In this document: piece by piece, positions 2,749-63,197 of the stretch
Layout: every line of letters starts with the position of its first letter
How positions within the stretch are numbered: position 1 is the stretch's first letter
Source: Escherichia phage vB_EcoM_EC001
Length of the DNA stretch: 64,000 nucleotides
Strand: one strand, 5' to 3'
Sequence record: MN445185.1
Program-made: the position numbers and the translations under genes
Notes under the pieces: generated by a model
The model's database searches: none
The model's input: the letters and a program-made list of their open reading frames with translations, nothing else
Told to the model about the DNA's origin: nothing

Positions 2749-2751
2749 ACC

Positions 2752-2777
2752 GAGGGGCCTTGCGCCCCTCTTTTTTT
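2752..2777 (+). terminator. rho-independent terminator
   Basis: GC stem GAGGGGC/GCCCCTC followed by T7 run, directly after stop 2746-2748. Confidence 0.8.
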
Positions 2778-2794
2778 GTGCGAAGAGGGGCAGC

Positions 2795-8923: not shown

Positions 8924-9808
8924 ATGCCCTTTTCACTATGGAACAGAGCCATGATTGATATTTATACCGACTATGCGGCTGTATTGACAGTCAACCGTCA
9001 CGAAGGTCGTGCAGCACCGATGCTAGATTTAGTGACGCTCGGTATGGATTACGGTTACGATGTGGCGTTATCCGATGTTTATAGCAACCCGTTGTCTGAC
9101 CCCGCGGACGAAACTGTCCGTCTGGAATCCATTATCGTGAAGGTAGCGGTTGGATTAGGCAACCGCCTCGGTATCGGACTTAATCCACAAATCGTCTTCC
9201 AGAAACCGAAAGAAACCGTACGTATCCTTCACGGTGTGTTGGAAGCCTTCGAGGAGTTCGAAGACAGTGATGCCCTTTACGGGATTGTCTCCTCTGGTGA
9301 GACACCAGAGTATATCCTGGAGAACATGTGTCGTTATGTTTACGGTGACGAAAACCTGCACTTCGAAGACCTGATTACTGTTGTCAGCCCACGCGTGCTT
9401 ACCGTGATGGAGAACTTCTTAGCAGCAGAGTCGTTGGAAAGCCAGAAACGAAACGGCGACGACGAGCGTCAACAGCGTATCGTCGCTTACTTGCGGTTGT
9501 TCCCTGAGAACCCGTCAGCGTTTGTCTTTATGAATCTGCCTGCTGAGCCAGACTTAACGGTGGTGCAGCAGTCGTTAGAGTTTCGCGTAGAGGACATTAG
9601 CGAAATTGATTTGCTGACGATGTATGCGGTGGGCTTATCGATTATTCCTCATGCGGAGTTTGATGGGGCTTACGGTGACTTAGAAAAGAACCTTGCCCTG
9701 TTGAACGTCGACAACGTCCCGCCTGGAGAAATCTTGCGGAAAGGATTGGAAGCGTTGAAAGTCATATACGCTAGTGGGGACGCGGAGGTAGATGATGAAC
9801 AAGATTGA
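8924..9808 (+). CDS. hypothetical protein (294 aa)
   Basis: Long ORF; start uncertain (ATG 8924 or 8951), neither with a strong SD. Confidence 0.7.
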   Translation: MPFSLWNRAMIDIYTDYAAVLTVNRHEGRAAPMLDLVTLGMDYGYDVALSDVYSNPLSDPADETVRLESIIVKVAVGLGNRLGIGLNPQIVFQKPKETVRILHGVLEAFEEFEDSDALYGIVSSGETPEYILENMCRYVYGDENLHFEDLITVVSPRVLTVMENFLAAESLESQKRNGDDERQQRIVAYLRLFPENPSAFVFMNLPAEPDLTVVQQSLEFRVEDISEIDLLTMYAVGLSIIPHAEFDGAYGDLEKNLALLNVDNVPPGEILRKGLEALKVIYASGDAEVDDEQD

Positions 9809-11090
9809 CTATCTGGTCGCTGCGTGTAAAGCAGAAGCTTGGCGTAGACTGGTGTGGCGTATTGCGGTTTTCAACGTGGCAATCTTTAATGAAAAAGGTG
9901 AGCCACCTGAGCAATACGACCTGAACTATATTGACGGCTTGCCCCACTACTGGGAAAACGAAGAAATTAAATGGGTGCCGATTGAAGGGTGCAAAAAAGA
10001 TGAAGAGCTGTTCGTGCCAGAAGAGCAGTTTGAATTGCGTCCTGAGATGTACCCAGGTTTAGCTGGTCCCATTCCGACTACCGTGGGTCGCTATGTCTTT
10101 AACTGGATTGCTATCTATTACGCTTTCGGTACCCGTCTCCCGTATCTGGCAGAGTCTCGTGACCCACTAGCCTACCGTAAAGAGATGTATGAGCGTTGTG
10201 TGGAATATGATGACAGCGATCCAGACAACGAAGACGCGATTCGACCGTACATGATAGGACGCTTTGTAGGGGGTCTACACGAGCTTGCTCCGTTGTGTCG
10301 TGGGATTGCCCCAACAGGAACTATTAGAAGCCTTACAACGCATCCTGACGCGTATAAGGTACGAGATGCGTTGCTGTTGAAGCACAAAGACGAACTGGAT
10401 AACCCTGCGGTTATCGTTATGATTGAAAAAGCTCTCGATGAACTTGATAAAGAGTGGTTGAGTGGCGACCAGTCCGTTGAGTTCTACAGCTCTCCTAAAG
10501 CGCGTATGCGTCGCCGTAAGCTGATGCTGATGTACGGTATTCAGACCGCTTTTAAAGAAGGTGCAGATTTTACCTTAATCCCAACGAGCCTGATGGAAGT
10601 TGATCAGACCGGGATGAAGTATCTGGTAGAGAAATTCAATGATACGCGAGAAGGTTCCTTCATGCGTGGTGCAGAAACTGCCAAGGGCGGGGAGCAAGTA
10701 CGTATCATCCAGATGATCTTCCAGAACCACAAAATCGTGCCTGGTGATTGCGGGACAAAACTGACACATGCAGTTGTAATTAACCAGTATAACTACAAGC
10801 GTTATGTTGGCATGAACGCGATGGTTAACGGTAAAGTTACCCAACTCACCGAAGAGTATTTGAAAACGCAATTTGGTAAAGTTGTTCGACTCCGCCGACC
10901 CATCTTATGTCAGCAAGGTCACGTAGACTGTTGTGCGGCGTGCTCCTCTGCACACAAAGCAGAAGAGCCACGGGCAATCGCTGCGGATATCTCTTCCGGC
11001 TTCTCGAACGTTATGACCACTGCAATGGGTGCGATGCACGGTCGTGAAACCGTGGTTAAAGAGTACATCCCTAAATTCCACATCACCTAA
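9792..11090 (+). CDS. hypothetical protein (432 aa)
   Basis: GGAGG SD at 9784-9788; overlaps upstream gene end; Cys-rich C-terminus. Confidence 0.75.
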   Translation: MMNKIDYLVAACKAEAWRRLVWRIAVFNVAIFNEKGEPPEQYDLNYIDGLPHYWENEEIKWVPIEGCKKDEELFVPEEQFELRPEMYPGLAGPIPTTVGRYVFNWIAIYYAFGTRLPYLAESRDPLAYRKEMYERCVEYDDSDPDNEDAIRPYMIGRFVGGLHELAPLCRGIAPTGTIRSLTTHPDAYKVRDALLLKHKDELDNPAVIVMIEKALDELDKEWLSGDQSVEFYSSPKARMRRRKLMLMYGIQTAFKEGADFTLIPTSLMEVDQTGMKYLVEKFNDTREGSFMRGAETAKGGEQVRIIQMIFQNHKIVPGDCGTKLTHAVVINQYNYKRYVGMNAMVNGKVTQLTEEYLKTQFGKVVRLRRPILCQQGHVDCCAACSSAHKAEEPRAIAADISSGFSNVMTTAMGAMHGRETVVKEYIPKFHIT

Positions 11091-24037: not shown

Positions 24038-24082
24038 ATGGCAAACTTTGTAAAAAGTAAACTCGCCCGCGAGTCCGTTGAA
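24038..24082 (+). repeat. direct repeat, copy 1 (5' ends of the paralogous genes)
   Basis: First 29 nt identical to 25393..25421, then synonymous differences. Confidence 0.8.
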
Positions 24083-25315
24083 GCTACCGGCGACGTAATC
24101 GACGGTCTGAGCAACGTTGAACCGGCAGAAGAGAACATCGACGTTCAGCTGGCAGAAGTTGCGTCTATCGACGGTCAGCTGGAACAGCTCGATGGTGACC
24201 AGGAAACCCTGGCTGCTGATACCGAGCGTACCGAAGCTGCTATCGACGCTGCTGACGAAAAAATCGAAAACGGTGAAGAGATGCCTGAAGAAGCCATCGC
24301 TCACACCGAAGTGGCGCAGGAATCTATCCGTAAGCGTTGGGCTATCGATCGTACCAAACTGGCACGCGAATCTTATCGCCGCGGCCGTGGCATGACCAAA
24401 GCAGCTCAGGAAGGCTGGAAAGAAACCCTGAAAGATCTGTTCAAGCGCTTCGTTGAACTGTGTAAAGCAGTTATCGCGAAAGCGAAAGAGCTGAAGCTGA
24501 AATACATCAACGTTGGTAAGTCTGCACAGAAACGTGCGAAAGCTTACCAAGAGATGCTGCGTAAGCTCGGTAAGCAGAAGAAAGAAAACATCTCTGGCGG
24601 CTTTATTAGCAAACTGTCTATCGAAGGCGACTTCGATGTGGCCAACTCCATCGCTATCGCGAAAGAGCTGACCGGCGGTAAAGCGAAAGATGCTATCAAC
24701 AAGCTGTCCTCTCAGGCGGCTGACTCTGCCGTAGCGATCACCAAAACTGCAGAAGGTACTGCAACGGCTGCTAAAGGCGCCGTTGATGTTGCCCTGTTCG
24801 GTACCGCTGCTAAGAAACTGCGCACCCTGCCGCAGTTCGAAGATGGCGAAGGCGGTCAGAAAGTTCTGGCACTGCCAGGCAACGCCTATGTGCAGATCGG
24901 TAGCAAAACTCTGGCCGGCGGCCAGGAGTACACTGCGGTGGCGTTCCTGTCAACTGGCGACTCTACCGACACGAAAGAGATTGCTACCCCGGCAATTACC
25001 GCACTGGCGTCTGCAGCAACCGCTCTTGATGCGATCGGTAAAGGTTTCGAGAAAGTGCTGCAGGACTTCCGCTCCTATGACGCCGAAGTTGAGAAACTGG
25101 AGCAGGCTGCTAGCAAAGCTGCTGCTGCCCTGGATAAATCCAACGACGAAGGCGAGTGGGAAGCACTGCGTAATGCACGTACTGCAGCCGACCAGGCTGT
25201 GCGTAACTACCAGACTCTGAACCGTGCCGTGGCGCATGTTGGTAACACTGTTATCAGCGGCCTGAACGGTTACATCGGTGCTGGTATCGGCGCGTACGAA
25301 AAGTCTAAAGCTTAA
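24038..25315 (+). CDS. abundant virion protein candidate, paralog A (425 aa)
   Basis: Strong codon bias; acidic N-terminal region; repeated A-Q-E motifs; paralogous to 25393..26652. Confidence 0.8.
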   Translation: MANFVKSKLARESVEATGDVIDGLSNVEPAEENIDVQLAEVASIDGQLEQLDGDQETLAADTERTEAAIDAADEKIENGEEMPEEAIAHTEVAQESIRKRWAIDRTKLARESYRRGRGMTKAAQEGWKETLKDLFKRFVELCKAVIAKAKELKLKYINVGKSAQKRAKAYQEMLRKLGKQKKENISGGFISKLSIEGDFDVANSIAIAKELTGGKAKDAINKLSSQAADSAVAITKTAEGTATAAKGAVDVALFGTAAKKLRTLPQFEDGEGGQKVLALPGNAYVQIGSKTLAGGQEYTAVAFLSTGDSTDTKEIATPAITALASAATALDAIGKGFEKVLQDFRSYDAEVEKLEQAASKAAAALDKSNDEGEWEALRNARTAADQAVRNYQTLNRAVAHVGNTVISGLNGYIGAGIGAYEKSKA

Positions 25316-25392: not shown

Positions 25393-25437
25393 ATGGCAAA
25401 CTTTGTAAAAAGTAAACTCGCTCGTGAATCTGTCGAA
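25393..25437 (+). repeat. direct repeat, copy 2
   Basis: See copy 1. Confidence 0.8.
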
Positions 25438-26652
25438 GGCGCAGGCACTGTCGTTCCAGATGGTATCGAGCTGCCGGCTGAGTCCGTGGAAGGTACTCTG
25501 GCTGACATCGAGCATGACACCAAACCGATCGACCAGCTGGACGCAGAAGCAGACGTGCTGGCAGAAGACGGTGACGAAACTGATGCACAGCTGGATGCAG
25601 TTGATGCTGCTGAAGCTGCCGCTGACGGTGAAGGTGAAGATGGCGAAGAGCCAATGGAAGTGGAAGAAGATATGCCTGACGATGCTGCTGAGCAGCTGGA
25701 CGTTGCGCAGGAATCTATCCGTAAACGTTGGGCATTCGACCACCGCGTAAGCGTTGCGCAGGAATCTTACGGTGCACGTAAGCGTCGTCAGGTTGCTCGT
25801 GAAAGCCTGTGGGAAGATATCAAAGCCTTCCTGAAGCGCATCTACGAGTGGCTGAAAGAGCAGGGCCGTAAAATCAAAGATCGCTGGCTCAAGTTCAGCA
25901 ACCAGGGTAAATCCATTCAGGCGCGTGCTAAGAAATATGACGCTGCGCTGTCTGGCCTGGGCAAGCAGAAGAAAGACACCGTTTCCGGTGGCTTCATCAA
26001 GAACCTGACCTCTAACGGCAAGTTCCTGGGTGACAACCTGCAGGTGCTGAAAGAGCTGCTGGCTAACATCGGTGGCGTTTACAGCATGCAAGAAGACGTC
26101 GTTCGTGAAGCAACTGTAATGGTAACTTCTATTGAGTCTGGCAAACACGTTGGCGGTTTCGCTGCAGCGGTTAATAAAGCAGTTTCTGGTAAGTCCGGCG
26201 ATCTGCAGCTGCTGGGCAACCAGATCGGTAAAGCTGACGTTAAAGTCAACGGTGACGACCTGGAAGCATCCTTCACTGTTATCGATGCAGAAGGCAGCGT
26301 AGAGCAGTCCGTAGCGACTCCTTCTCTGACCACCCTGAGTGGTCTGGTGGCGTTCTTCAATCAGCTGGGTAAAGCTGTGGAAGAAAACGTGAAAGCGTAC
26401 CACAAGAACAACCAGGCGCAAGAGAAGTACGAGCAGGCTATTGACAAGCTGCTGAAGCGTATCGACAGCGTGAAGATCGACGACAACGCCGAGCTGACCA
26501 ACAACGTACGTGTTGCTCGCCGTGCTATCACCATCGCGAACCAGTTCGTTTCCTGGACCGAACGTTGCGTTGCAACTGGCCAGAAAAACCTGATCGCCGG
26601 TGTTAACGGCTACATCAGCGCCGGTATCGGTGCTTATGAAAAGGCTAAGTAA
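25393..26652 (+). CDS. abundant virion protein candidate, paralog B (419 aa)
   Basis: Same N-terminus MANFVKSKLARESVE, shared VAQESIRKRW and C-terminal GYIxAGIGAYEK; AGAGGA SD. Confidence 0.8.
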   Translation: MANFVKSKLARESVEGAGTVVPDGIELPAESVEGTLADIEHDTKPIDQLDAEADVLAEDGDETDAQLDAVDAAEAAADGEGEDGEEPMEVEEDMPDDAAEQLDVAQESIRKRWAFDHRVSVAQESYGARKRRQVARESLWEDIKAFLKRIYEWLKEQGRKIKDRWLKFSNQGKSIQARAKKYDAALSGLGKQKKDTVSGGFIKNLTSNGKFLGDNLQVLKELLANIGGVYSMQEDVVREATVMVTSIESGKHVGGFAAAVNKAVSGKSGDLQLLGNQIGKADVKVNGDDLEASFTVIDAEGSVEQSVATPSLTTLSGLVAFFNQLGKAVEENVKAYHKNNQAQEKYEQAIDKLLKRIDSVKIDDNAELTNNVRVARRAITIANQFVSWTERCVATGQKNLIAGVNGYISAGIGAYEKAK

Positions 26653-26663
26653 TTAGTCTGGCG

Positions 26664-26703
26664 AATCCCCCACTTCGGTGGGGGATTTACCCTTTCTTTT
26701 TTT
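26664..26703 (+). terminator. rho-independent terminator
   Basis: AATCCCCCAC-TTCG-GTGGGGGATT hairpin, T-run after a 5-nt gap. Confidence 0.65.
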
Positions 26704-26720
26704 GTCTCGGATTAGAAAAG

Positions 26721-26746
26721 ATTTCAGATATATATTACCTAGGTGA
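26721..26746 (+). promoter_or_regulatory. phage promoter-like motif, class I (ATTTCAGATATATATTACCTAGGTGA)
   Basis: 26/26 identical to 35839..35864; just downstream of a terminator, 43 nt before ATG 26789. Confidence 0.6.
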
Positions 26747-26788
26747 GATTGCATTGGTAATCTTTTAACCGACTATCACTTAAGGAAT

Positions 26789-27550
26789 ATGAAAATGAAA
26801 ACTATCAATCTGCTCACTCTGGCTAATGGCTCTATCGAACGTAACGAAGACGACGGTGCTATCCTGCAAGCAACCAACGGCTTTAAAGTTATACTGTCCC
26901 CAATTCAATTCACAGGCTTACAAGTCTGGCTGCGCGAAATCAACAAACGCAAACTGCCGCGTCGTATGGCGGTTGGCGACCTGCTCTTTACACTGGATAA
27001 CGTTGACGGTGTTAAACCGGAACTGTACGAAGTTCAGTACAAAGCCGCAGTCGATACACTGCGACTGAAGAAAGGGGAAGAAATCAAATTCATTCCGGTG
27101 ACCTATAATGGTAACACTTACCTGCAGATGGAAGACACTCCGTTCGCTGCGCACGTCACTGACACTGCTGTTGAACTGGTCATTGCCATTGGTCTGGTTG
27201 CGACTCCGGCGGTACTGGAAGTCAGCGAAGATCCACTGCAGGATTTCGGTACGCTGTTCGAAACCATACTGGGTGGCACGAAGCTCGGGAACATCACCAA
27301 GGTCATCCGCCGTATTCCGATTCGGAATGCGCAGCCGAAAGTGATGACGCTGGCAGAAAGCATGACGGAACACCCGGAGCTGACTGCTGAAGAAATTCAG
27401 GCGCAAGAAGAAGCAATTGAAGAAGAACGTCAGAACGCCCAGCGTGAAGCCATGAAGCCGTTCCGTGGTTTCCTGGATGCTATCTTCGACTGTGCGAACT
27501 CGCTGATGAAACCGGTTGAAGTGAAAACCGCTGAAGAACCAGCAGCGTAA
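26789..27550 (+). CDS. hypothetical protein (253 aa)
   Basis: First gene after the promoter motif; TAAGGAA SD. Confidence 0.7.
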   Translation: MKMKTINLLTLANGSIERNEDDGAILQATNGFKVILSPIQFTGLQVWLREINKRKLPRRMAVGDLLFTLDNVDGVKPELYEVQYKAAVDTLRLKKGEEIKFIPVTYNGNTYLQMEDTPFAAHVTDTAVELVIAIGLVATPAVLEVSEDPLQDFGTLFETILGGTKLGNITKVIRRIPIRNAQPKVMTLAESMTEHPELTAEEIQAQEEAIEEERQNAQREAMKPFRGFLDAIFDCANSLMKPVEVKTAEEPAA

Positions 27551-27608
27551 ATATTACGTTAGCCCGAAACCGTATGTAATCGACCATTAATCTTAAGGAG
27601 TATTTATA

Positions 27609-28154
27609 ATGAAACGTGTCAATCTTAAAGATATTATTAGCGTAAGTAACGATAAATCATCACCCCTTTGGGATGAGGTTACTACGCTGCAATTTAGTAC
27701 CAGTGTCATGACAATTCCACGTCCAGTTATGATTGGTCTAGGTGTGTTTATTTTAGAATGTGACCGTCGCTCAGCAGGCACGCACATTCTAACGTACGGT
27801 GGGTACGAGTTTGTCGTCGAAAGCGAACTTAACAAACATTGCTCAGAGGGCATCATCGGTCTTTGGAAATACTTAATCGATGCGGGATTGTCCGACATGT
27901 CTAAAGTCTGTAGTCACGATTACGGTAAGTTGGAGCATTTTGTTCGTCGTAACGGTGAGCGTGTTCCGGTGACGATTGATGGTTACCAGACCAAAATGGT
28001 CACCGCGCCTTACAGCGCTGAGGGGATACGTGCAACGCTTTACATTCGCCAGACGCTCGTACGCGATGACCTGTTAGACGAAGCAGAGCAAACTCTACAT
28101 GGTCGTGTTGTGAACCTCGCACCGTCTTACGACGCGCAGCGTATGGTTCAATGA
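27609..28154 (+). CDS. hypothetical protein (181 aa)
   Basis: CTTAAGGAGTATT SD context; followed by terminator. Confidence 0.7.
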   Translation: MKRVNLKDIISVSNDKSSPLWDEVTTLQFSTSVMTIPRPVMIGLGVFILECDRRSAGTHILTYGGYEFVVESELNKHCSEGIIGLWKYLIDAGLSDMSKVCSHDYGKLEHFVRRNGERVPVTIDGYQTKMVTAPYSAEGIRATLYIRQTLVRDDLLDEAEQTLHGRVVNLAPSYDAQRMVQ

Positions 28155-28160
28155 TTTAAT

Positions 28161-28190
28161 AAGGTGGCCTAACAAGCCACCTTCTTTTTT
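28161..28190 (+). terminator. rho-independent terminator
   Basis: AAGGTGGC/GCCACCTT hairpin then T6. Confidence 0.7.
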
Positions 28191-28201
28191 GGGATTGTGT
28201 G

Positions 28202-28573
28202 ATGACTGATAAATTTAAATTTGAGATGACGCCAGAAACCGCAAACGTAGAACCGCAGATTCGCCTCCGTGTACGAGATGACGAATACTGTCTAGCGATA
28301 GTTGAAGAAGACCTGGCAGAGGCCTTGTTGCTGCTCGGCGACAGAGAATGGCTTGGCACGCTAACTATTAGGCTTAAGAGGCCGTTGGTTGGTAGTGGGA
28401 TGTTTGCAGGTTGCTGTACGAACAGTCTGTTGGTCGATGTGGATGCCAGAACGGTATCACTGTCGGTGATTCTGGACTATCCGGTGACATTCTCGTATAG
28501 CCGTCTTGAATTTAGTCGCCATTTACGCCACGCAATGAAAGAATTATCTAAAGCCCGTAGGAGCAAACCGTGA
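28202..28573 (+). CDS. hypothetical protein (123 aa)
   Basis: ATG 28202 (GTG 28199 also possible); stop overlaps DHFR start. Confidence 0.6.
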   Translation: MTDKFKFEMTPETANVEPQIRLRVRDDEYCLAIVEEDLAEALLLLGDREWLGTLTIRLKRPLVGSGMFAGCCTNSLLVDVDARTVSLSVILDYPVTFSYSRLEFSRHLRHAMKELSKARRSKP

Positions 28574-29121
28574 AACTCTCTATTATCGTCGCGATGGACC
28601 GCAACAATGCCATCGGTAAAAACAATGAACTGCCGTGGCGTCTGCCTGCCGACCTGGCTAACTTTAAGGCAATTACCACAGGGAAGAACGTTATCATGGG
28701 TAGTAGGACCTGGGAATCGTTAGGTTGTCGTCCTTTGCCTAACCGCGGCAACTTAATTGTTACTCGTAACCCAGAAGGGTACATCAATGGCCGGGAAGAA
28801 CACACGGACATGCGTTTGGTGACGTTTCACACGAGTATTGATTTAGCCATCAAAGCTCTGGAACGTATCGAGAAAGATACCGGAAAAGAGCAAGAGGTGA
28901 TGATTATTGGTGGCGCATCAGTTTATCAACAAACCCTCGCTCGTGCGGATCGTATTTATCTATCGCGTATTGACATCGCTGTTGAAGGTGCCGATGCTTT
29001 CTTCCCAGAAATTGACAGAGATGTTTTTCAAGTCGATTACACCATGACCCATTTACCCGACGGCCAGAAACACACGCACCGTTGGACGTATCAAATTTTA
29101 AATCGTATCGCTGGAGTTTAA
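28570..29121 (+). CDS. folA: dihydrofolate reductase (183 aa)
   Basis: Matches DHFR family signatures (NAIGKNNELPW, LPADLANFK, VIMGSRTWES, PLPNRGNLIVT, MIIGGASVY, IDIAVEGADAFFPE); GTG start with AGGAG SD. Confidence 0.9.
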   Translation: MKLSIIVAMDRNNAIGKNNELPWRLPADLANFKAITTGKNVIMGSRTWESLGCRPLPNRGNLIVTRNPEGYINGREEHTDMRLVTFHTSIDLAIKALERIEKDTGKEQEVMIIGGASVYQQTLARADRIYLSRIDIAVEGADAFFPEIDRDVFQVDYTMTHLPDGQKHTHRWTYQILNRIAGV

Positions 29122-29122
29122 A

Positions 29123-29452
29123 GTGGAAAAGAAATCTGTTAAAGGTTACGTGATGGAAGTAACCCCAAAAGCGGCTGAACTGGCGAGAGAATATACCGGA
29201 TGTATCGTGCCACTGACCTCAATCGTGGTGTGTGAGGGTTCCTTCTATCTCATCTTCGGCAGTAATGAGCCGGTCTATGCGTACATCGATGACCCTGATC
29301 AAGTTACAGCCCTCTCTATTGCGATGGGTAAAATGGTATCAGACAAGATGATTGAATTCGTTGTCGGGAAAACGATGGACATTATCCGCAATCCGGTTGG
29401 ACACAGCGGAATAAAATGTAAGAAGTGGCAGCTAGCTTGGCTGGCACATTAA
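29123..29452 (+). CDS. hypothetical protein (109 aa)
   Basis: GTG 29123 with GGAG SD right after the DHFR stop; alternative ATG 29153. Confidence 0.55.
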   Translation: MEKKSVKGYVMEVTPKAAELAREYTGCIVPLTSIVVCEGSFYLIFGSNEPVYAYIDDPDQVTALSIAMGKMVSDKMIEFVVGKTMDIIRNPVGHSGIKCKKWQLAWLAH

Positions 29453-29479
29453 ACGGTTATCTTCTTAAGGAGTATTAAA

Positions 29480-30070
29480 ATGCTTAGTGAACGTGCGCCC
29501 CGTTTAGAAGCGGCGGTATTGAAAATTGAACGTGTGAATATCAAATTGTTATCGAACGATGTTGGTCGGGCATCGTACAGTGACTTATGGAGTATCCCCG
29601 CACCACCGCGTACGTTGGTGGTGAACTGGTTAACGAATCGTTTGGGCTCATGCGATGTTAAAGCCAAGGATGTCGTACTAACGCTACCTGACGGCAAAAC
29701 AACTACCGGCGATGTGTTGATTGCCAGTGGTTCTAAATTGCGTATGGGCGATATTCGCTTGGGTGAGTCCTATCTTCCGGACGGTATGCGACCTATGCCG
29801 ATTGGCGAGGTAGAAAACCGAATTCTGGAAAAAGAAAGAGTGCTGGCGTTCATACGCCGCCCGCCGGATAGCACGGTGTCGTTTAAGCAACGTAAACCGG
29901 CTGCAGACAACACACCCGTTGTCGAGTGGCTCGAAAAGTATTTTGGCGAATATGGCATCAGTCCTGATGAGGTCATTCTCATCAACGGCCACGCCATGAT
30001 GCCGTTTAAGCCCAGCCCGTATTACACGATGGGACAACTGCGCGCTTCCTTCAAAGGGAAAGCACGCTAA
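29480..30070 (+). CDS. hypothetical protein (196 aa)
   Basis: CTTAAGGAGTATT SD context; followed by terminator. Confidence 0.7.
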   Translation: MLSERAPRLEAAVLKIERVNIKLLSNDVGRASYSDLWSIPAPPRTLVVNWLTNRLGSCDVKAKDVVLTLPDGKTTTGDVLIASGSKLRMGDIRLGESYLPDGMRPMPIGEVENRILEKERVLAFIRRPPDSTVSFKQRKPAADNTPVVEWLEKYFGEYGISPDEVILINGHAMMPFKPSPYYTMGQLRASFKGKAR

Positions 30071-30076
30071 AGTGTG

Positions 30077-30104
30077 GGGGACTTCGGTCCCCTTTCTTTT
30101 TTTG
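30077..30104 (+). terminator. rho-independent terminator
   Basis: GGGGAC-TTCG-GTCCCC hairpin then T-run. Confidence 0.8.
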
Positions 30105-30144
30105 CGTTTTAGGCCAGTGATATGACTACAACGAGGGACAGCTA

Positions 30145-35673: not shown

Positions 35674-35680
35674 AAGTGTG

Positions 35681-35715
35681 CCTGGTCTCCTTGTGAGACC
35701 AGGTCTCTTTATTTT
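35681..35715 (+). terminator. rho-independent terminator
   Basis: CCTGGTCTC/GAGACCAGG hairpin then T-rich run. Confidence 0.75.
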
Positions 35716-35717
35716 AG

Positions 35718-35828
35718 CCCTCTAAACGCACTCACAACCTTCTAAAGCCTCTCTAACGGTAGAACGACCCTCTAAAGTGATAAAAGCTCTCAAAACGCGT
35801 TTGAGAGCGTTATAGAGGGTATACTCTG
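35718..35828 (+). repeat. array of CCCTCTAAA(G)-like direct repeats plus near-palindrome CTCTCAAAACGCGTTTGAGAG
   Basis: Copies at 35718, 35738, 35748, 35768; palindrome 35787..35807; inverted TATAGAGGGTATA at 35811. Confidence 0.6.
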
Positions 35829-35838
35829 AATAAAAATA

Positions 35839-35864
35839 ATTTCAGATATATATTACCTAGGTGA
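35839..35864 (+). promoter_or_regulatory. phage promoter-like motif, class I (ATTTCAGATATATATTACCTAGGTGA)
   Basis: Identical to 26721..26746; 52 nt upstream of ATG 35916. Confidence 0.6.
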
Positions 35865-35915
35865 TAGAAGACAATCTATCAACTCAATCGACTATTAATC
35901 TAAAGGAGTATTGCC

Positions 35916-36059
35916 ATGTTAACTCGTAACCATAAACGTGCCATCTTCGCCATCGTTGCTGTTGTTGCTTTCGCGGTATTGTCTATCACTGTAACTCAAG
36001 ATTACAACAAATGCATCGATAACGGTAACTCTGTTGCCATGTGTACAGGTCGCGGCTAA
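35916..36059 (+). CDS. small membrane protein (47 aa, one TM helix)
   Basis: TAAAGGAGT SD 6 nt upstream; hydrophobic core AIFAIVAVVAFAVLSITV; below the ORF-track size cutoff. Confidence 0.5.
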   Translation: MLTRNHKRAIFAIVAVVAFAVLSITVTQDYNKCIDNGNSVAMCTGRG

Positions 36060-36241
36060 TGGACTTTTCTGATACGCAGTTTGCCGAGTTCTTATCTCAC
36101 CCGCGTGTTAAACGTGAGTGGGATAATCTCACTAACGGTGTTCGTCATCAGGACGAAGAAGAAATTGTTCACGTTACCGCGCAAGTCTTACTCGTCTCAC
36201 CGACAGGTAATGTGTTTCCAATGCAGCAGGAGATTTACTAA
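36059..36241 (+). CDS. small hypothetical protein (60 aa)
   Basis: ATG overlaps upstream stop (TAATG); the track start 36041 is a GTG inside the upstream ORF. Confidence 0.5.
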   Translation: MDFSDTQFAEFLSHPRVKREWDNLTNGVRHQDEEEIVHVTAQVLLVSPTGNVFPMQQEIY

Positions 36242-36429
36242 TGGGCGTTTTAGTTAATTACGATGGTAAAAACGGAATCGTGCTTCGCGAAGTGGAAGAT
36301 AACGAAACAGTAGAGGTGAATCCGCAAACCTCAGAACGTACGTTTATCGTGGGGCCGAAAAGCGCATTACCGAAGCCGGACTGGAAAGAAGAGCTGGCGA
36401 AGTTCCGTGGGGAACTCGGGAAGAAGTAG
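36241..36429 (+). CDS. small hypothetical protein (62 aa)
   Basis: TAATG coupling; followed by terminator. Confidence 0.5.
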   Translation: MGVLVNYDGKNGIVLREVEDNETVEVNPQTSERTFIVGPKSALPKPDWKEELAKFRGELGKK

Positions 36430-36442
36430 TATAGATAATTTA

Positions 36443-36470
36443 ATACCACCTACGGGTGGTATTATTTTTT
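36443..36470 (+). terminator. rho-independent terminator
   Basis: ATACCACC-TACG-GGTGGTAT hairpin then T6. Confidence 0.75.
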
Positions 36471-36481
36471 GCCTAAGGAAC

Positions 36482-38175: not shown

Positions 38176-39738
38176 TTAGAACAAATCATCACCCATTCCA
38201 CCGGTGAAGAAGTTGATAGACGACGCTGTTACGGTTTCTTCTTTATCACAATCCCAAGGCAGGATGCCAACATCCTGGAAAGGTATCACTGTGTAGTGAT
38301 AAGATTCTTTAGTATCGATAATGGTGCGGTGCTTACCGCGTTGAACTTCTAAGAAGCTATGGCCGTTGACCACACGCTTGTTAAAATACATTTCACCATC
38401 GGCCTCGTTATCAAGGCTCGAACAACTATCGTAAAGACCACGACCAGGTAAGTTCTTACAGAAACCTACCGGGTCTAACGCTTTTAAGCGCTTACCTTCT
38501 GGGGAAATCTGGTGTGGGGCAATTAAGAACCCACGGTTGCGTACCACTTGGATGTTACGAGCAATACGATAAATTTCTTTGATATCACTCCCGGCAATAC
38601 CGTTGCCGTGTCCTGCTTTGCTGATTGTGCCTAAGTAGTCTGCGCGAATGCCAACAACATGATAACCGCGACGACGTAAGTCGAGAATAAGGTCGTTGAT
38701 GTAGTGCACTTTAAAATCGGAGTTGGTGTGCTTTTGGAAAACGTAGTCCCAACCGTTTGCGCGAATCTTACCACAGAGGTAATCAGACATTGCTGTTGTG
38801 TGTGCTAACTTCTCTTCAGCGGTTGCATCCTGTGCAATGGTCATCTGTGGAACTTGTCCTTCAAAATGACCGTACAGTGCTTGATAGCCGTAAGCTAAGT
38901 TAACGTCGAGTTCGTTTTCTAAACTCAAGTCAAGAATAATTGGTTGCAGTGTGCCCTTCACATCCGCCATTACTTTCTCAGGCGTGTTGAAGATAGGAAT
39001 CGACAAGCTCAGTAAGAGACTGAACAAAGACTTACAGTTAAAAGGTAACGCCGGCATTAGCCACAGTTCTTCGGTAATCCCTTTGTTACAACCGAGCATT
39101 TGGTTAATGGCTTTCCAGCCCGTCTGCAAACCATTACCTGCTGCTTTCTTGTTAATCGAGTCGAACACTTTAACAAACGGAGCCCGATTATCTGTAACCA
39201 GCTCACCGACCAGCGATGGAATCTTATTATGAGAGCGTTCACCGAACGTAGATAGCGCCTCTTTGAGTTCGAGCACTGCGGTGTTCAGATCAACACGTGT
39301 CTCAGTTCCATTCAATGCTCCGAACGCGCGACCCATTTTTGTTTTGAGTTCGACGCTCTGTAAACATTGACGTAATTGGAAATAATATTGAGACAGTTGT
39401 CGATTAAGATGCTCGGTACGTTTGTCTTCTTCCTCGGGCAAATCGTCTTCGAGGAATTTGGTAATCGTATCGTATAGAGGACGTACTTGAGTGGTGGCCA
39501 GCTTCAAGCGCTTCATAACGCTCGCGTGGTCGTATTCCATGCCGCCGTCTATGATAGATGTGATAATGTCCTTGATCTCGATGAGTGCAAAGCGCTCTTC
39601 GCCATCTTCCGCATATTCCGGAAGCTTGATCTGCATCAGAACTTTTCTTATGACATCATGATCCTTGCTAGGGTCCGTCAGCATAGATTCTGTATACAGT
39701 GCGGCTAAGGCGGTTATCAACATCATTTTACTATTCAT
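38176..39738 (-). CDS. hypothetical protein (520 aa)
   Basis: Long ORF; AAGGA SD on minus strand; hydrophobic N-terminus. Confidence 0.75.
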   Translation of the reverse strand: MNSKMMLITALAALYTESMLTDPSKDHDVIRKVLMQIKLPEYAEDGEERFALIEIKDIITSIIDGGMEYDHASVMKRLKLATTQVRPLYDTITKFLEDDLPEEEDKRTEHLNRQLSQYYFQLRQCLQSVELKTKMGRAFGALNGTETRVDLNTAVLELKEALSTFGERSHNKIPSLVGELVTDNRAPFVKVFDSINKKAAGNGLQTGWKAINQMLGCNKGITEELWLMPALPFNCKSLFSLLLSLSIPIFNTPEKVMADVKGTLQPIILDLSLENELDVNLAYGYQALYGHFEGQVPQMTIAQDATAEEKLAHTTAMSDYLCGKIRANGWDYVFQKHTNSDFKVHYINDLILDLRRRGYHVVGIRADYLGTISKAGHGNGIAGSDIKEIYRIARNIQVVRNRGFLIAPHQISPEGKRLKALDPVGFCKNLPGRGLYDSCSSLDNEADGEMYFNKRVVNGHSFLEVQRGKHRTIIDTKESYHYTVIPFQDVGILPWDCDKEETVTASSINFFTGGMGDDLF

Positions 39739-39752
39739 GGAGCATCCTTAAA

Positions 39753-40277
39753 ATGCAAATTCGTTTTAGTCCACCGTGGGAAGTTCAATCTAACATAGAT
39801 AAAGGGGCTGGCGTTAAAAAGTTGGAGGAACTCCAAGCAAGCTTCTTTAACTGGTTATATGACTGCTCGTCGGGCTTTAGTTCCATCATACTGCCAGTGA
39901 GTGACCCTATTTCGATTTATAAATCGATTATGGCACCACCTGCACTTCCGACTCTTTATTATGACCAGGTCTTAAACCTGGTTGAGAAAGGTACGAATGA
40001 AACCCTTGCTGATTTATATGGGGAATCATTCGACGGTCGTTTACGTTGGGTGTTCTCACAACGTGGCGATGTTGTTGTGGCGTCTTTTGCAGAAGCTAAA
40101 TCCGGACCGGGTTTTTCTTTAAGTGAAGACCACGCTGCGAAAAAGATGTTCTGCGCAGAACTTTTTAAATATATGCGTCCCAAGACTCGTGTCGTGGATG
40201 ATACGTTCAGTACGTCGACGCAGTTTGCTGCGCACGAAGTGCTGACGCAGTTGTACGCATGTCATTTATCTAAATAA
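39753..40277 (+). CDS. hypothetical protein (174 aa)
   Basis: ATG 39753 is 14 bp from the divergent minus-strand start; the track start 39699 overlaps that gene. Confidence 0.65.
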   Translation: MQIRFSPPWEVQSNIDKGAGVKKLEELQASFFNWLYDCSSGFSSIILPVSDPISIYKSIMAPPALPTLYYDQVLNLVEKGTNETLADLYGESFDGRLRWVFSQRGDVVVASFAEAKSGPGFSLSEDHAAKKMFCAELFKYMRPKTRVVDDTFSTSTQFAAHEVLTQLYACHLSK

Positions 40278-40289
40278 GGTAAACTTGAA

Positions 40290-42590
40290 ATGAAAGATAC
40301 CCGTATCGCTAGTCTGGACCAGCTGGTTCAGCAGGGCAATGCTCTGGTCGCTGCTGCCAAGGCAGGCTCTTCCGCTAATGACGTATGGCAAACCGTAGCC
40401 GTTGGCGAATCTGTACGTAAAAATGCTGCCGGCTTCACCAACCTGCGTGACACTGCTCAGCAGCACTACGAAGCTGTAAACCCTGGCAAAACCATGAGCC
40501 ACGCTGCTCAGGTTGCTTCTGCGATGATTCTGGCTGCTGCCGGTCACGAAGACGACTTCATGACCCGTGTTGCTGCCGAGAGCGCGAAGCCGGAATACGC
40601 CAGCTACATGCCGATCGCTATTTCTGGTGCAGCATCTCTGGCTGCTGACTACGGTAAAACTCCGCTGGTCGCAACTGAATACTACACCAACAAAGACCTG
40701 GACAAAAACCTGGGTCTGACCTGGACGCTGAACGTGCGTGCTCTGGAAACTCAATCCAAGTTTGCAGAAACCCTGTTCCCGACCATCACTGTGGACACCA
40801 ACGACGTCGGCATCACCGTTCGTACCAAAGTTACTACTGTATCTCGTGGTATCCTGAACGCCCTGCTGACCAAAGACGTGGTTGAAGACAACCGTCAGCC
40901 GCTGCATAACGCGCTGTCTAACCACAAAGTCCTGCAGGACGATGCTATCCGTATCGTACCTTACGTGATGGAAACCGGTGAGAACGCGAAGTTCTTCGTA
41001 TCCGAAGACATCATCGAAAACGAAAACGTTCAGCTGGGTCGTGTGCCGGCGTATCCGACCAACTACCTGAGCTTCTCTGAACGTCGTCTGAACCTGTTCC
41101 AGCTGTCTGCCCATCCGGGTATCGTGCAGGAAGGTTACGATGAAACCGACGAAATCGCACCGGGTGCAGCGCTGGGTAGCCTGCTGCTGTCTGTGCGTAA
41201 GCCGACTGAAGAAGCGAAAGATGGCGCGCTGATCAAACTGAACGTACGCGACATGCAGTTCGCTACCTTCCAGCGTCCTCCTGAAGGTGATGGCCGTGAG
41301 CTGGTCCTGCAGTTCCGTCGCACTGTGTTCTCCCTGAACGCCAAGTCTCTGGACTGGAAAGGTGCTGAAATCCCGGCACTGGCCGCTCTGGCACAGAACG
41401 ATTACACCATTCGTTATTCCATGAACATCAGCATGTCTCTGTTCACCAACGGTCAGTTCTCTGGTCGTGTTGACGTGACTGCACCGTCTCTGGAAATCGA
41501 AGGTCTGTACGACGCAACTGGTACTGCTGTTGATATCGAAAGCGGCACCGGTAAAGTTATCATCGACAACCTGAAACTGGAGCTGCTGGGCTGGCGCTTC
41601 GACGGTACTCGTACCAACGAGAACCGGAGAACCCAGGGCCTTCTGCTCGACCCGATTTGGGAACAAGAGAACTACAAACTGCAGTACGGTTCTCCGATCA
41701 TGACCAAATCTCCGGTTGGCGTTGAATACGACGACACCGAACGTCTGGACGACCTCGTTTCTGCGGTTAACATCCGTAACGAAATGCTGGCTATCACTCA
41801 GACTCTGTCTTACACCGAAGCGGTTAAGAACGCAGCTGCGTCCATGATCACTCCGTGGGACAAACCTGCTATCCGCGGCCTGGGCCGTCACTGGGTTGCT
41901 CCGTGGTACAGCGAAAGCGACTACGAAGTGGACAAAGTGATCCAGTCTCTGGATACCAAAGATGCGCTCATCAACGCCCGTCAGGGTCTGGTACAGCGTA
42001 TCGGCGACCAGGTAACTCGTGCTATCCAGGATTCTCGTTTCATGCCGGCTCTGCGCCTGCTGACTGCGGACCCGAACGCACTGCCGAAAGTTGTTATCGC
42101 AACTGACGAACCGACTGCTGCAATGCTGCTGCTGGTTCAGGGTGACCAGCGTCTGCTGGGCGATCGCTACGAGTACGAAGTTATCACCACCAACGATGAC
42201 CGCTGGCGTGTGAAGAACGAAGCTGACGGCAGCTGGACTCGCCGCCTGCAGTGGGTTCTGAAAGTTCCAACCGCTGATGACGGTTCTTACTGTGTTCTGA
42301 ACTGGGGTAACCACTTCTGGTCTCCGATCATGGTAACCAACATCAACATCCAGCGTAACGGCGCTACCAGCAAAGAGCTGGCAGTACAGCCTCGTAACGC
42401 GCACATCTGCCACTGCCCGATCACTGGTCTGATCTGGATTAAAGGTATCACCAAGTTCGTGGAAGAGAAACTGGCGTTCAACGTCACTACTACTTCCAAC
42501 GGTACTGGCGGTACTAATGGCGGTAATGCGGGTGATGTTGGCGGCGGCGCTACCCAGCCAGGTACTGGCGGTGAAGGCGCTGGCGGCTAA
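40290..42590 (+). CDS. abundant virion structural protein, candidate major capsid protein (766 aa)
   Basis: Strongest codon bias in the window; size typical of jumbo-phage capsid proteins; Gly-rich C-terminal tail; strong terminator downstream. Confidence 0.6.
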   Translation: MKDTRIASLDQLVQQGNALVAAAKAGSSANDVWQTVAVGESVRKNAAGFTNLRDTAQQHYEAVNPGKTMSHAAQVASAMILAAAGHEDDFMTRVAAESAKPEYASYMPIAISGAASLAADYGKTPLVATEYYTNKDLDKNLGLTWTLNVRALETQSKFAETLFPTITVDTNDVGITVRTKVTTVSRGILNALLTKDVVEDNRQPLHNALSNHKVLQDDAIRIVPYVMETGENAKFFVSEDIIENENVQLGRVPAYPTNYLSFSERRLNLFQLSAHPGIVQEGYDETDEIAPGAALGSLLLSVRKPTEEAKDGALIKLNVRDMQFATFQRPPEGDGRELVLQFRRTVFSLNAKSLDWKGAEIPALAALAQNDYTIRYSMNISMSLFTNGQFSGRVDVTAPSLEIEGLYDATGTAVDIESGTGKVIIDNLKLELLGWRFDGTRTNENRRTQGLLLDPIWEQENYKLQYGSPIMTKSPVGVEYDDTERLDDLVSAVNIRNEMLAITQTLSYTEAVKNAAASMITPWDKPAIRGLGRHWVAPWYSESDYEVDKVIQSLDTKDALINARQGLVQRIGDQVTRAIQDSRFMPALRLLTADPNALPKVVIATDEPTAAMLLLVQGDQRLLGDRYEYEVITTNDDRWRVKNEADGSWTRRLQWVLKVPTADDGSYCVLNWGNHFWSPIMVTNINIQRNGATSKELAVQPRNAHICHCPITGLIWIKGITKFVEEKLAFNVTTTSNGTGGTNGGNAGDVGGGATQPGTGGEGAGG

Positions 42591-42620: not shown

Positions 42621-42659
42621 AGCTTACTCCCTTCGGGGAGTAAGCTTTTTCTTTTTTTC
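42621..42659 (+). terminator. rho-independent terminator
   Basis: AGCTTACTCCC-TTCG-GGGAGTAAGCT hairpin then long T-run. Confidence 0.85.
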
Positions 42660-42670
42660 TAAAAATTTAT

Positions 42671-42693
42671 AGATAGATATTATCTTAGGGAGA
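42671..42693 (+). promoter_or_regulatory. phage promoter-like motif, class II (AGATAGATATTATCTTAGGGAGA)
   Basis: Related copies at 42869 and 63176; directly downstream of a terminator. Confidence 0.6.
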
Positions 42694-42725
42694 GAGTCAT
42701 TCGGTTTTAACTTAAGGAGACAGTA

Positions 42726-42809
42726 ATGGAAGTCAATTTAGAGAGATCAAGACTAGTTGCACCGATGTTTGATGGGCGCGGTTTTATGGCGAACGGTCAC
42801 CACGTTTGA
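42726..42809 (+). CDS. possible leader peptide (27 aa)
   Basis: TAAGGAGA SD 6 nt upstream; sits between two promoter motifs and is followed by a hairpin. Confidence 0.3.
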   Translation: MEVNLERSRLVAPMFDGRGFMANGHHV

Positions 42810-42832: not shown

Positions 42833-42857
42833 GGGCACTGGGTATGAACCCGTGCCC
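42833..42857 (+). other. stable hairpin without U-tract (GGGCAC...GTGCCC)
   Basis: 10-bp stem with one bulge, loop ATGA; between the small ORF and the second promoter motif. Confidence 0.5.
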
Positions 42858-42868
42858 AAAGTAATCTG

Positions 42869-42889
42869 AGATAGATATTATCTACGTGA
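42869..42889 (+). promoter_or_regulatory. phage promoter-like motif, class II variant (AGATAGATATTATCTACGTGA)
   Basis: 15/15 identical core with 42671; 33 nt upstream of ATG 42923. Confidence 0.55.
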
Positions 42890-42922
42890 ATAATTCTTTT
42901 GGTATTATTACTGGGATGTTCA

Positions 42923-43938: not shown

Positions 43939-45717
43939 GTGTTTAAAGATGCGATTAGGAAGATTAAAGAGGCAGGCGAAATAGTGCCTTTTAATCGTGC
44001 AATTGCAGAAGGAGTTGGGTACACACAAGCTAAAGACGGGATACATGATCGTGTGGCAACCATTCTACGTCGTGAGTTGACGTATGATGAAATCGATAAC
44101 CCGAAATTACCAGAAGGGTTAACGGTATTAGGTTGTCGCCAAATGTCGCCGTTTGAAGCTTTTATCTTTAAGTTATCGAAGTCGGATAACAATTCACGAA
44201 ATAATCGTGGCCGGTCAATTATTAACATCTCATCCACTGATACGTATATGGTAATGGCCTCGTTCCGAGTTCCAGGCGATCCTCGCCCGGTGCAACGACC
44301 AATGAGCTTACCATTTATTCGTCGTGGCGGCTTAATGAACTACTACGGTACAACGTACCACGTAGCACCTGTAATCCACCAACCTGGTATTTGTCGTGAG
44401 CACGGTGGTATCTTTATTAACTTTGACTTCACCCGCAAGGTGTCTATCAAGTTCTGTAAGAAACCAACGAAGATTCTGGTGAATGGTCGCCCTGAGCAGC
44501 TGTTCTTGCCAGGTACATCGAATCTGTTTGTCTCAACCGGACAGATTGGACACGACACCGATGAGAAGCCGTTGATGTATTGGCTCTTCGGGCGCTACGG
44601 CTTTAAACAAGCTGTGAAGCGTTATGCGGGTGTTGATGTGGCGATTTGGCCAGCGATTAAAGTACGTGATGTGGACTTAACGAAGTATGTGGTGATTCAG
44701 TCCGGTGAGCCACAACTCGCGAAGACCATCCAGTACGTACTGTTGGTTAAACGTGAAGATATGCCTAACACCGATGCAGGGCGTTGGGATCAGAATGAAC
44801 ATCTGTTGCTGGTAGCGACTGCCGCATTCTTCAAAGCAGCGCACTACTACGCAGGTAAACAGAACAGTAAGAACGGTCGTGCACCAACACTGCCGGGGCT
44901 GTTTACACAGATTAACGAAATGGCAATGGACGAAGATATTGCGAACCTCAATTCTGCAGCCTCCTGGCGCGAAGTGTTGGGTCGTAGTATTCGCGGACTG
45001 AAGCCTTCGGATATCGAACTGAGTCGCAGTATGGACAGCCACTTCCAGGAATGTGAACGCTATGTCAACAGCACCTTCCGTGGTGAGCTGATGGCAAACG
45101 ATCCGTCCATCCCTGATGATTTGGATATGTTTGATTTCCTCTGGTACACCACGCAGCTGATGGTGCGTACTCGTCTTACCAAACAAGATGATATTCCGTC
45201 TATGTACGGAAAACGTCTCACGGTAACCGATTACTTACTGTTGGGCCAACGTGGCTTTACCACAACGATCTCGAAAATACGTTGGAAGCTGGGGCAGTTG
45301 GAACATCGGACTCCAGAGACAGCGGCGAAGTCTATTCGAGACGCACTGAACAAACAGATCGTGCTCAATCTGGTGATGCGCACCATTACGAGCAACGGCG
45401 GTATCAGTTTCTTCAATGCCTCTACAGAATCAATGGTATTGGCAGTGTCTACGCACGCCATCGGTCAAACCGAAACCGATGCTAAGCGTTCGAAGAAAGG
45501 AGGCAAGACCGTTAACTTGAACGACCGTACTAAGCACGCATCTGCGTCGCATCTGGAATGTGGTAACGTCTACTATATTCCTAAGTCGGCACCGTTTAAG
45601 GCAAACATCCTCAACCCGTACATGAAGACCAACCCAAGTTTGGTAATGATGCGGAACCCTAAACTGGACCCGTACATCAGACCGACCGAAGAAGACATTG
45701 CTAAAATCGGCCGCTAA
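43939..45717 (+). CDS. hypothetical protein (592 aa)
   Basis: GTG start with GAGGGAGG SD 5 nt upstream. Confidence 0.75.
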   Translation: MFKDAIRKIKEAGEIVPFNRAIAEGVGYTQAKDGIHDRVATILRRELTYDEIDNPKLPEGLTVLGCRQMSPFEAFIFKLSKSDNNSRNNRGRSIINISSTDTYMVMASFRVPGDPRPVQRPMSLPFIRRGGLMNYYGTTYHVAPVIHQPGICREHGGIFINFDFTRKVSIKFCKKPTKILVNGRPEQLFLPGTSNLFVSTGQIGHDTDEKPLMYWLFGRYGFKQAVKRYAGVDVAIWPAIKVRDVDLTKYVVIQSGEPQLAKTIQYVLLVKREDMPNTDAGRWDQNEHLLLVATAAFFKAAHYYAGKQNSKNGRAPTLPGLFTQINEMAMDEDIANLNSAASWREVLGRSIRGLKPSDIELSRSMDSHFQECERYVNSTFRGELMANDPSIPDDLDMFDFLWYTTQLMVRTRLTKQDDIPSMYGKRLTVTDYLLLGQRGFTTTISKIRWKLGQLEHRTPETAAKSIRDALNKQIVLNLVMRTITSNGGISFFNASTESMVLAVSTHAIGQTETDAKRSKKGGKTVNLNDRTKHASASHLECGNVYYIPKSAPFKANILNPYMKTNPSLVMMRNPKLDPYIRPTEEDIAKIGR

Positions 45718-63131: not shown

Positions 63132-63137
63132 GTTATA

Positions 63138-63174
63138 CCCACTCCTTCGGGAGTGGGTCGACTCTATTTTTTTT
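63138..63174 (+). terminator. rho-independent terminator
   Basis: CCCACTCC-TTCG-GGAGTGGG hairpin, T8 run after an 8-nt gap. Confidence 0.55.
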
Positions 63175-63175
63175 G

Positions 63176-63197
63176 GATAGATGTTATCTTAGGGAGA
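63176..63197 (+). promoter_or_regulatory. phage promoter-like motif, class II (GATAGATGTTATCTTAGGGAGA)
   Basis: 21/23 identical to 42671..42693; abuts the terminator T-run; 95 nt upstream of ATG 63292. Confidence 0.55.

Follow-up and report, generated by a model that had tools for sequence, protein, structure and literature searches.

Jumbo phages that encode their own RNA polymerases (RNAPs) all carry an AT-rich motif near -10 upstream of their early operons, and wherever transcripts were profiled this motif turned out to be the early promoter (PMC7598289). For phiKZ, 28-32 early promoters are given in the literature, and phiKZ-type promoters are described as conserved at -10, -20 and -30 with a T-rich block upstream of -19 (PMC8244752 among the sources for both); most early leaders of this phage are 31-40 nt long (PMC8244752). 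A 38-nt “consensus early promoter” of phiKZ, tatattaaaaaaaatttaagatgtatattacaaatgtg, is given in a 2025 preprint (supplement of PMC12676376). The late promoters of phiKZ, which are used by the non-virion RNAP (nvRNAP), are defined by T(-3)ATG(+1) at the start (PMC7598289). The early promoters of 201phi2-1 are also conserved at -10, -20 and -30, in three blocks as in the motif described here. Early transcription in phiKZ and AR9 depends neither on the host RNAP, as judged by rifampicin, nor on new protein synthesis (PMC7598289); this host independence is not universal, because the RNAP-encoding jumbo phages RSL2 and RSF1 are rifampicin-sensitive (PMC7598289). According to a 2017 paper on AR9, no virion RNAP (vRNAP) of a jumbo phage had been purified by then.

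The DNA analysed here, a window of 64,000 nt from Escherichia phage vB_EcoM_EC001 (MN445185.1), belongs to an SPN3US-like jumbo phage (Seoulvirus) and is 96-99% identical to SPN3US and SPFM phages. SPN3US-like jumbo phages are related to phiKZ, form a nucleus and possess two multisubunit RNA polymerases. Identity around the first copy of the element discussed below is 96% with Salmonella phage SPN3US and E. coli phage Lh1B; around the second copy, the SPFM and SPLA Salmonella phages agree with the window at 99.3%. Five vRNAP subunits of SPN3US (gp42, gp218, gp240, gp241 and gp244) are essential virion proteins, as mass spectrometry together with amber mutants revealed (PMC5694885); a packaged multisubunit RNAP is documented in this way for the close relative SPN3US and not for the EC001 isolate. 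The gp42 homologue of the window lies at 9792-11090 (+) and matches SPN3US gp42 (39365-40660) in position and length, while Pfam, which barely detects the divergent RNAP subunits, did not find it. Window and SPN3US coordinates are shifted by about 1 kb because of an intein-like insertion in the homologue of SPN3US gp36: this 933-aa ORF (2738-5539, +), compared to 568 aa in SPN3US, which lacks the insertion, contains two additional domains, Hint (PF05203, E=2e-6) and LAGLIDADG homing endonuclease (PF14528, E=4e-10). A literature search found no transcriptome, transcription start site map, timing or rifampicin study for SPN3US-like phages, and no paper that prints or maps a promoter consensus for the SPN3US group.

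A preliminary description of this DNA had pointed to an identical 26-mer at 26721 and 35839. We found exactly this repeat: ATTTCAGATATATATTACCTAGGTGA occurs in two perfect copies, 26721-26746 and 35839-35864, both on the + strand and with 0 expected, and the likeness between the two loci spans 41 nt at 88% identity. No further match with up to three mismatches is present in the window, and 100 dinucleotide-preserving shuffles yielded 0 matches. The full 49-nt motif around copy 1 (site 1) covers 26702-26750 (+) with the 8-nt core TATATTAC at 26731-26738, and reaches 51.5 bits in a position weight matrix (PWM). Immediately 5' of it, an intrinsic terminator with an 11-bp stem and a T-run (26663-26700, +; hairpin 26663-26688) ends an internal-head-protein gene. 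Downstream follows transcription unit 1 (26789-30070, +) with six genes homologous to SPN3US gp55-gp60, among them the DHFR gene (28570-29121, +; PF00186, E=1e-46), an internal terminator (28161-28183) and a closing terminator (30076-30105, +; hairpin 30076-30093). Site 2 spans 35820-35868 (+; core 35849-35856; 49.0 bits) and stands about 135 nt 3' of the terminator after the gp65 homologue (35680-35714, +; hairpin 35680-35704). Its transcription unit 2 (35916-36429, +) consists of three tiny genes (47, 60 and 62 aa) that are homologous to SPN3US gp66-68 and for which Pfam gave no match, and is closed by a bidirectional terminator hairpin (36441-36475, +; hairpin 36441-36464). The operon contents named in the preliminary description are therefore correct, and so is the distance of 43-52 nt to the first gene (26746 to 26789, 43 nt; 35864 to 35916, 52 nt). 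Its placement of the motif “just after a terminator” suits copy 1, where hairpin and T-run end about 30 nt upstream, and copy 2 only loosely, and “Class I” is no recognised designation.

The surroundings of both copies show features of their own. The two genes immediately 5' of promoter 1 (24038-25315 and 25393-26652, +) are adjacent paralogues for internal head (ejection) proteins, homologous to SPN3US gp53/gp54, which have several repeat segments in common at an offset of 1391 nt. The spacer of about 130 nt between terminator and promoter 2 (35705-35835, +) harbours five CTCTAAA-like repeats (ccCTCTAAAcgc, cTTCTAAAgcc, tCTCTAAcgg, ccCTCTAAAgtg and gCTCTCAAAacg), and a perfect 9-bp hairpin, GCTCTCAAA-ACGCG-TTTGAGAGC, is located at 35786-35808 and partly kept in phage Asesino.

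Both 26-mers belong to a larger family, which has the consensus AAaaaaTtTcAGATAkATATTAyCTnngtGAg, and are conserved best within it. A relaxed motif, GATANATNTTAYCT, has five matches in the window (26727, 35845, 42672, 42870 and 63176) versus 0.43 expected, all of them on the + strand and intergenic, so that the copy number of two given earlier is right for exact copies and an undercount for the motif. Site 3 (42647-42695, +; core 42672-42685; 52.4 bits; 23/38 matches to the phiKZ consensus) belongs to the sub-type GATAGATATTATCT, lies directly 3' of the major capsid gene's terminator and has a 27-aa ORF behind it that lacks annotation. Site 4, of the same sub-type (42845-42893, +; core 42870-42883; 45.0 bits), is positioned 53 nt 5' of a gp76 homologue, after which comes the gene of an nvRNAP subunit (ORF 43939-45717, +), the homologue of SPN3US gp77 and phiKZ gp123. 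Site 5 (63151-63199, +; core GATAGATGTTATCT at 63176-63189; gene start 63292) is a weak member: within 63136-63199 the upstream A-tract and the TTTCA block are replaced by the T-run of a terminator, and its score of 19.9 bits compares with 39.9 bits for the SPN3US orthologue (92500-92560), a difference that suggests isolate-level variation in promoter strength. As a side observation, the 27-aa ORF MEVNLERSRLVAPMFDGRGFMANGHHV (42726-42809, +) between sites 3 and 4 has a strong Shine-Dalgarno sequence (SD) and falls within the gap of 333 nt that begins behind the major capsid gene. A GC hairpin without T-run (about 42833-42857) comes next; the region could encode a micro-protein or a short early RNA.

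To obtain the genome-wide distribution, the 49-nt weight matrix was applied to the complete SPN3US genome with its 264 annotated genes, from which the consensus cTc.AAaaaaTtTcAGATAGATATTATCTa.gtGAga emerged. Matches were found 23 times on the + strand and once on the - strand, the latter (15.4 bits) being the shadow of a partly palindromic site. Although intergenic DNA makes up only 6.4% of the genome, 21 of the 23 sites are intergenic (binomial probability about 1e-23), mostly 44-153 nt 5' of a co-oriented start codon. Hence the whole-genome scan proposed in the preliminary description, here run on SPN3US, argues against a motif that is equally frequent inside genes or in random orientation. 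Two sub-types can be distinguished, as GATATATATTAC(C/T)TAGGTGAGAGT accounts for six SPN3US sites and takes in the two 26-mer copies, and GATAGATATTATCT for most of the remaining ones. Two SPN3US sites count against a reading as early promoters, namely 25227, well inside gp30, and 174955, a weak site of 18.5 bits that overlaps the last bases of gp196. The former is a full-strength member (38 bits) within the gene of a gp68-like nvRNAP subunit, 279 nt before gp31, and may be an internal promoter.

The same distribution bears on the idea that the motif primarily serves a DNA-binding regulator of the phage as its operator, for instance in early-gene shut-off or timing. The main sub-type, AGATAGATATTATCT, does contain 5-nt inverted arms around a 5-nt spacer (AGATA-N5-TATCT), a weak dyad that would also be suitable for binding by a dimeric protein; one SPN3US site still scores 15.4 bits on its reverse strand, and the putative transcriptional regulator gp101 is encoded directly 3' of one site. 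Nevertheless, we regard an operator as extremely improbable, and the strong directionality of the motif, with a strand ratio of 23:1, led us to reject a symmetric operator as its main function. The conserved flanks are asymmetric (A-tract and TTT upstream, GTGA downstream), an architecture in common with the mapped phiKZ early promoters, and both 26-mer copies (AGATATATATTACCT) break the dyad. Besides, the spacing to start codons and the placement after terminators are typical of promoters, and an operator overlapping a promoter would be an addition rather than an alternative.

That the core resembles the early promoter of phiKZ-like phages had been stated in the preliminary description, and this likeness is borne out by the phiKZ sites and by the match to the 38-nt consensus. 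When tatattaaaaaaaatttaagatgtatattacaaatgtg was slid along both strands of the window, the two best positions were 26708 and 35826 with 28/38 matches each, in register with the two copies, in comparison to peaks of 21-25/38 in 20 block-shuffles of the window. The bare 8-mer TATATTAC is not over-represented (2 versus 1.4 expected in the window, 7 versus 5.7 in the first 50 kb of phiKZ). It occurs 33 times on the + strand of the whole phiKZ genome, and 25 of these 33 occurrences share the context tAtT.AAA..aaTTTaAaat.TATATTACaaat.TGa, are intergenic and stand before + strand genes. Among the 25 are the sites 5' of PHIKZ054 and PHIKZ260, for which primary early starts were mapped by dRNA-seq (PMC8244752). 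It is the extended context together with strand and location, and not the bare core, that is non-random. In line with this, the column-wise correlation between the SPN3US and phiKZ profiles amounts to 0.55 in register and to at most 0.40 when shifted, and the flanks alone, without the 8-nt core, still give 0.52 in register. A chance or low-complexity AT repeat is ruled out by the shuffles, the enrichment of the family and the match to the phiKZ consensus. A structured RNA or known RNA family was dropped as an explanation, since Rfam gave no match anywhere in the window and none over the sites. The early-type sites of phiKZ (NC_004629) visibly split into sub-families as well, such as ttcaaacatatttaaacagTATATTAC and ctaaaaaaagtttaagatcTATATTAC, which parallels the two SPN3US sub-types and suggests that promoter families expand by duplication.

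The genes behind the motif give insights into the enzyme that could read it. In SPN3US, sites precede gp5, gp9, gp22 (two sites), gp30, gp31, gp34-35, gp55, gp66 and gp76-77, with another one in the gap after the capsid gene; further sites stand before gp99, gp101, gp112, gp125, gp135, gp175, gp180, gp209, gp221, gp249 and gp263, and a weak one before gp198. The gp55 operon carries DHFR, gp66 is the first of the tiny genes, and many other small non-structural genes are also preceded by the motif, while vRNAP genes and structural clusters have no site directly before them. According to the SPN3US annotation, gp23, which follows gp22, is an RNAP beta subunit and gp34-35 are RNAP beta and beta'. 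Furthermore, gp30 is the homologue of phiKZ gp68, a sigma-like nvRNAP subunit (E=2e-13), and gp77 that of phiKZ gp123 (E=1e-22), both of which are listed among the nvRNAP subunits (PMC12676376). All non-virion RNAP clusters of SPN3US (gp22-23, gp30, gp34-35 and gp76-77) are consequently headed by the motif. As the nvRNAP cannot first transcribe its own genes, the motif must be read by an enzyme present at time zero; the candidates are the virion polymerase that is ejected with the DNA and the RNAP of the host.

Whether a polymerase other than the virion enzyme uses these promoters, either host sigma70 (-10-only, as in T4-type early promoters) or the nvRNAP (as a middle class), can be judged from the same sites, and we consider this improbable. 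The motif holds TATTAT or TATATT, which agree with TATAAT at 5/6 positions including A2 and T6, and given this good -10-like hexamer it may be used weakly by host sigma70; moreover, some RNAP-encoding jumbo phages need the host RNAP (PMC7598289), and part of the downstream genes (DHFR, replication-type) would suit a middle class as well. Against host sigma70, the best -35 match averages 2.4/6 over 22 sites versus 2.44 at random genome positions, and only one of the 22 sites reaches 9/12 with at least four matches per hexamer. A consensus scanner called no sigma70-like site at either copy, a TG extension is lacking, and in a 20-kb region sigma70-like sites show no enrichment (19 versus 20.9 expected). 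Some invariant positions lie outside any sigma70 element, namely AGA ahead of the core, CT behind it and GA where the start is predicted, and apart from CT they are common to phiKZ, whose early transcription is host-RNAP-independent. A sigma70 promoter was rejected on the missing -35 element and the lack of regional enrichment, and the argument of the preliminary description against a plain sigma70 promoter gains support from the random-level -35 match and the empty scanner result at both copies. With regard to the nvRNAP, these promoters drive every one of its subunit genes, so that another enzyme has to read them first, and the late element T(-3)ATG(+1) of phiKZ is absent at the predicted start, where the sequence after the core reads CTAGGTGA.

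Based on our data, it is probable that the 26-mer is the central part of an early promoter which corresponds, in the SPN3US group, to that of phiKZ and is used by the virion RNAP. By analogy with phiKZ, from which the reading polymerase, the start site and the timing are predicted, the 26-mer would correspond to about -24 to +2 of a phage-specific early promoter of 35-40 nt. A five-subunit virion RNAP, ejected into the cell together with the DNA, would recognise the A-tract at about -30, the TTT/CAGA block at about -20 and the ATATTAY core at about -10, and would start transcription at the conserved G/A of “GTGA”, some 6-7 nt beyond the core, which places the predicted starts at ~26745 (+/-2) and ~35863 (+/-2) on the + strand. 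Early transcription would then need neither the host RNAP nor new protein synthesis, and the predicted leaders of about 44 and 53 nt would fall within the range reported for phiKZ. The transcript of unit 1 is expected to begin at 26745, cover six genes and end at the terminator hairpin at 30076-30093, with a partial stop at 28161-28183, and that of unit 2 to extend from 35863 through the three tiny genes to the hairpin at 36441-36464. Since the promoter is placed behind an intrinsic terminator, each short non-structural operon would form an insulated early unit, one with DHFR and another with the three tiny genes; elsewhere in the genome, the same promoters would drive the non-virion RNAP genes.

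Comparison of Seoulvirus, Erskinevirus and Machinavirus shows that the motif is kept at its orthologous position in all three genera, whereas the leader diverges. Behind the internal-head-protein gene, Asesino (Erskinevirus) and ChrisDB (Machinavirus) retain the terminator and TCAGATAnATATTACCTnnGTGA, with a different leader and downstream gene, and in ChrisDB the pairing of the terminator stem is preserved by a compensatory A/T to T/A change. Machina has a near-perfect copy (58 bits) at a different locus. The orthologue of site 2 is present in Asesino, where an extra 81-aa gene follows, and absent in Wellington. In addition, the exact 23-mer CAGATATATATTACYTAGGTGAG was found in 14 IMG/VR contigs, 13 of them 107-246 kb in size, with 2-4 copies per contig and always on one strand; in the IMG/VR stretches, 43 of 48 PWM matches are followed by an SD and an ORF at a median of 70 nt.

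Another competing reading is a recombination or mobility scar. The PeSL (promoter-early stem-loop) elements of T4-type phages are repeated units that flank exchanged, variable small ORFs. In the genomes compared here, terminator-promoter-leader units are repeated with a gene content behind them that varies between genera. The repeat could mark the boundary of a PeSL-like terminator-promoter-leader cassette through which small accessory genes are shuffled, with its identity maintained by gene conversion instead of recognition by a polymerase. Such a scenario would fit the 41 nt at 88% identity and the similar leader/RBS segments of the two copies (D1, D19), the conserved leader, AATCGACYATTA..AAGGAG, by which the TATATTAC sub-type is accompanied, and the variable genes behind the orthologous promoter, with the extra gene in Asesino and no promoter in Wellington. 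Distant Erwinia phages, too, match only a segment of about 75 nt that comprises promoter and leader, at non-orthologous intergenic places. As a competing explanation, we nonetheless judge the scar to be very improbable: family members with unrelated flanks keep the same core, this core is common to phiKZ, which otherwise has no detectable DNA similarity, and a cassette presupposes promoter function and does not conflict with it.

A recurring leader element, AATCGAC(C/T)ATTAaTCTtAAGGAGtAtt, was observed at 26768-26788, 27578-27604 and 35886-35912 in the window and at 57148, 65457, 94282, 114032, 167594, 223320 and 224199 in SPN3US, which has about nine such intergenic sites. It ends about 27-29 nt before start codons, is often found directly 3' of TATATTAC-type promoters, occurs in Asesino and Wellington as well, and may be a conserved signal for translation initiation or processing.

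An extension of the early-promoter reading, to which we assign a low though not negligible probability, is a two-tier family and thus a sub-structured early programme beyond that described for phiKZ. In the first tier, the TATATTAC(C/T)TAGGTGAGAGTTA sub-type with both 26-mer copies would form, together with the conserved leader AATCGACYATTA-N-AAGGAG, an immediate-early expression cassette of about 95 nt, which might spread, via duplication or recombination, to places ahead of small genes for host takeover. In the second tier, the dyad-like AGATAGATATTATCT sub-type would drive polymerase and replication genes and could possibly be gated by a phage regulator in addition.

The motif does not reveal a new kind of element but is useful for annotation: with about 23 phage-specific promoters, the SPN3US group adds to a known type, which will not surprise a specialist. 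Its consensus provides a map of early transcription units for SPN3US-like jumbo phages of Salmonella, E. coli and Erwinia, and it flags likely host-takeover genes and unannotated small ORFs. These phages are candidate agents for therapy and biocontrol, and most of their genes lack an annotation. The motif, its family, their distribution and conservation and the match to phiKZ are direct observations of this study, and they indicate that the architecture of vRNAP promoters is conserved between Pseudomonas and enterobacterial Chimalliviridae despite otherwise unalignable DNA. This offers a useful handle on how a polymerase without a sigma homologue finds its promoters, and on phage-activated expression cassettes.

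T7-type promoters are long, conserved, directional and phage-specific, run through the start site and are repeated many times per genome. The SPN3US-group motif is alike as a long, conserved, directional repeat through the predicted start; T7 relies on an unrelated enzyme class, in contrast to the split beta/beta' multisubunit enzyme in the virion of the SPN3US group. With sigma70 and T4 early promoters, the motif has in common the 5/6 match of a -10-like hexamer, which by itself does not suffice for a sigma70 promoter, and the place upstream of early genes, but it differs by the missing -35 element and TG extension and by conservation at positions that sigma70 does not read. Going by published descriptions, 201phi2-1 and AR9 likewise combine an AT-rich element near -10 with virion RNAPs, and their motifs were found by computer 5' of early operons and later confirmed by transcript mapping, although the consensus differs from phage to phage (PMC7598289).

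The closest counterpart is phiKZ. Its early starts were mapped from transcripts, whereas those of the SPN3US group are predicted by analogy. Most SPN3US-group members use ATATTATCT after an invariant AGATAG instead of TATATTAC, and the members of the motif family other than the two copies carry the core variants ATATTAT or ATGTTAT; a conserved CT follows the core in the SPN3US group and is lacking in phiKZ. The hosts of the SPN3US group are enterobacterial and the genome has about 48% GC, and for this reason the motif stands out more from the background. In phiKZ, an early-type site is also found after the capsid gene and before gp121-123, like site 4, a positional parallel that is carried by gp77/gp123 only, as SPN3US gp76 shows no detectable homology to phiKZ gp122. 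In both phages sites precede homologous nvRNAP genes (gp68/gp30 and gp123/gp77), and in both they are intergenic, co-oriented, often behind a terminator and present as a few dozen per genome. Finally, the 8-nt core TATATTAC of phiKZ is matched at 8/8 positions in both window copies, and the layout is the same, with an A-tract at about -30, TTT and A.A at about -20, the core at about -10 and TG(A) at the expected start.
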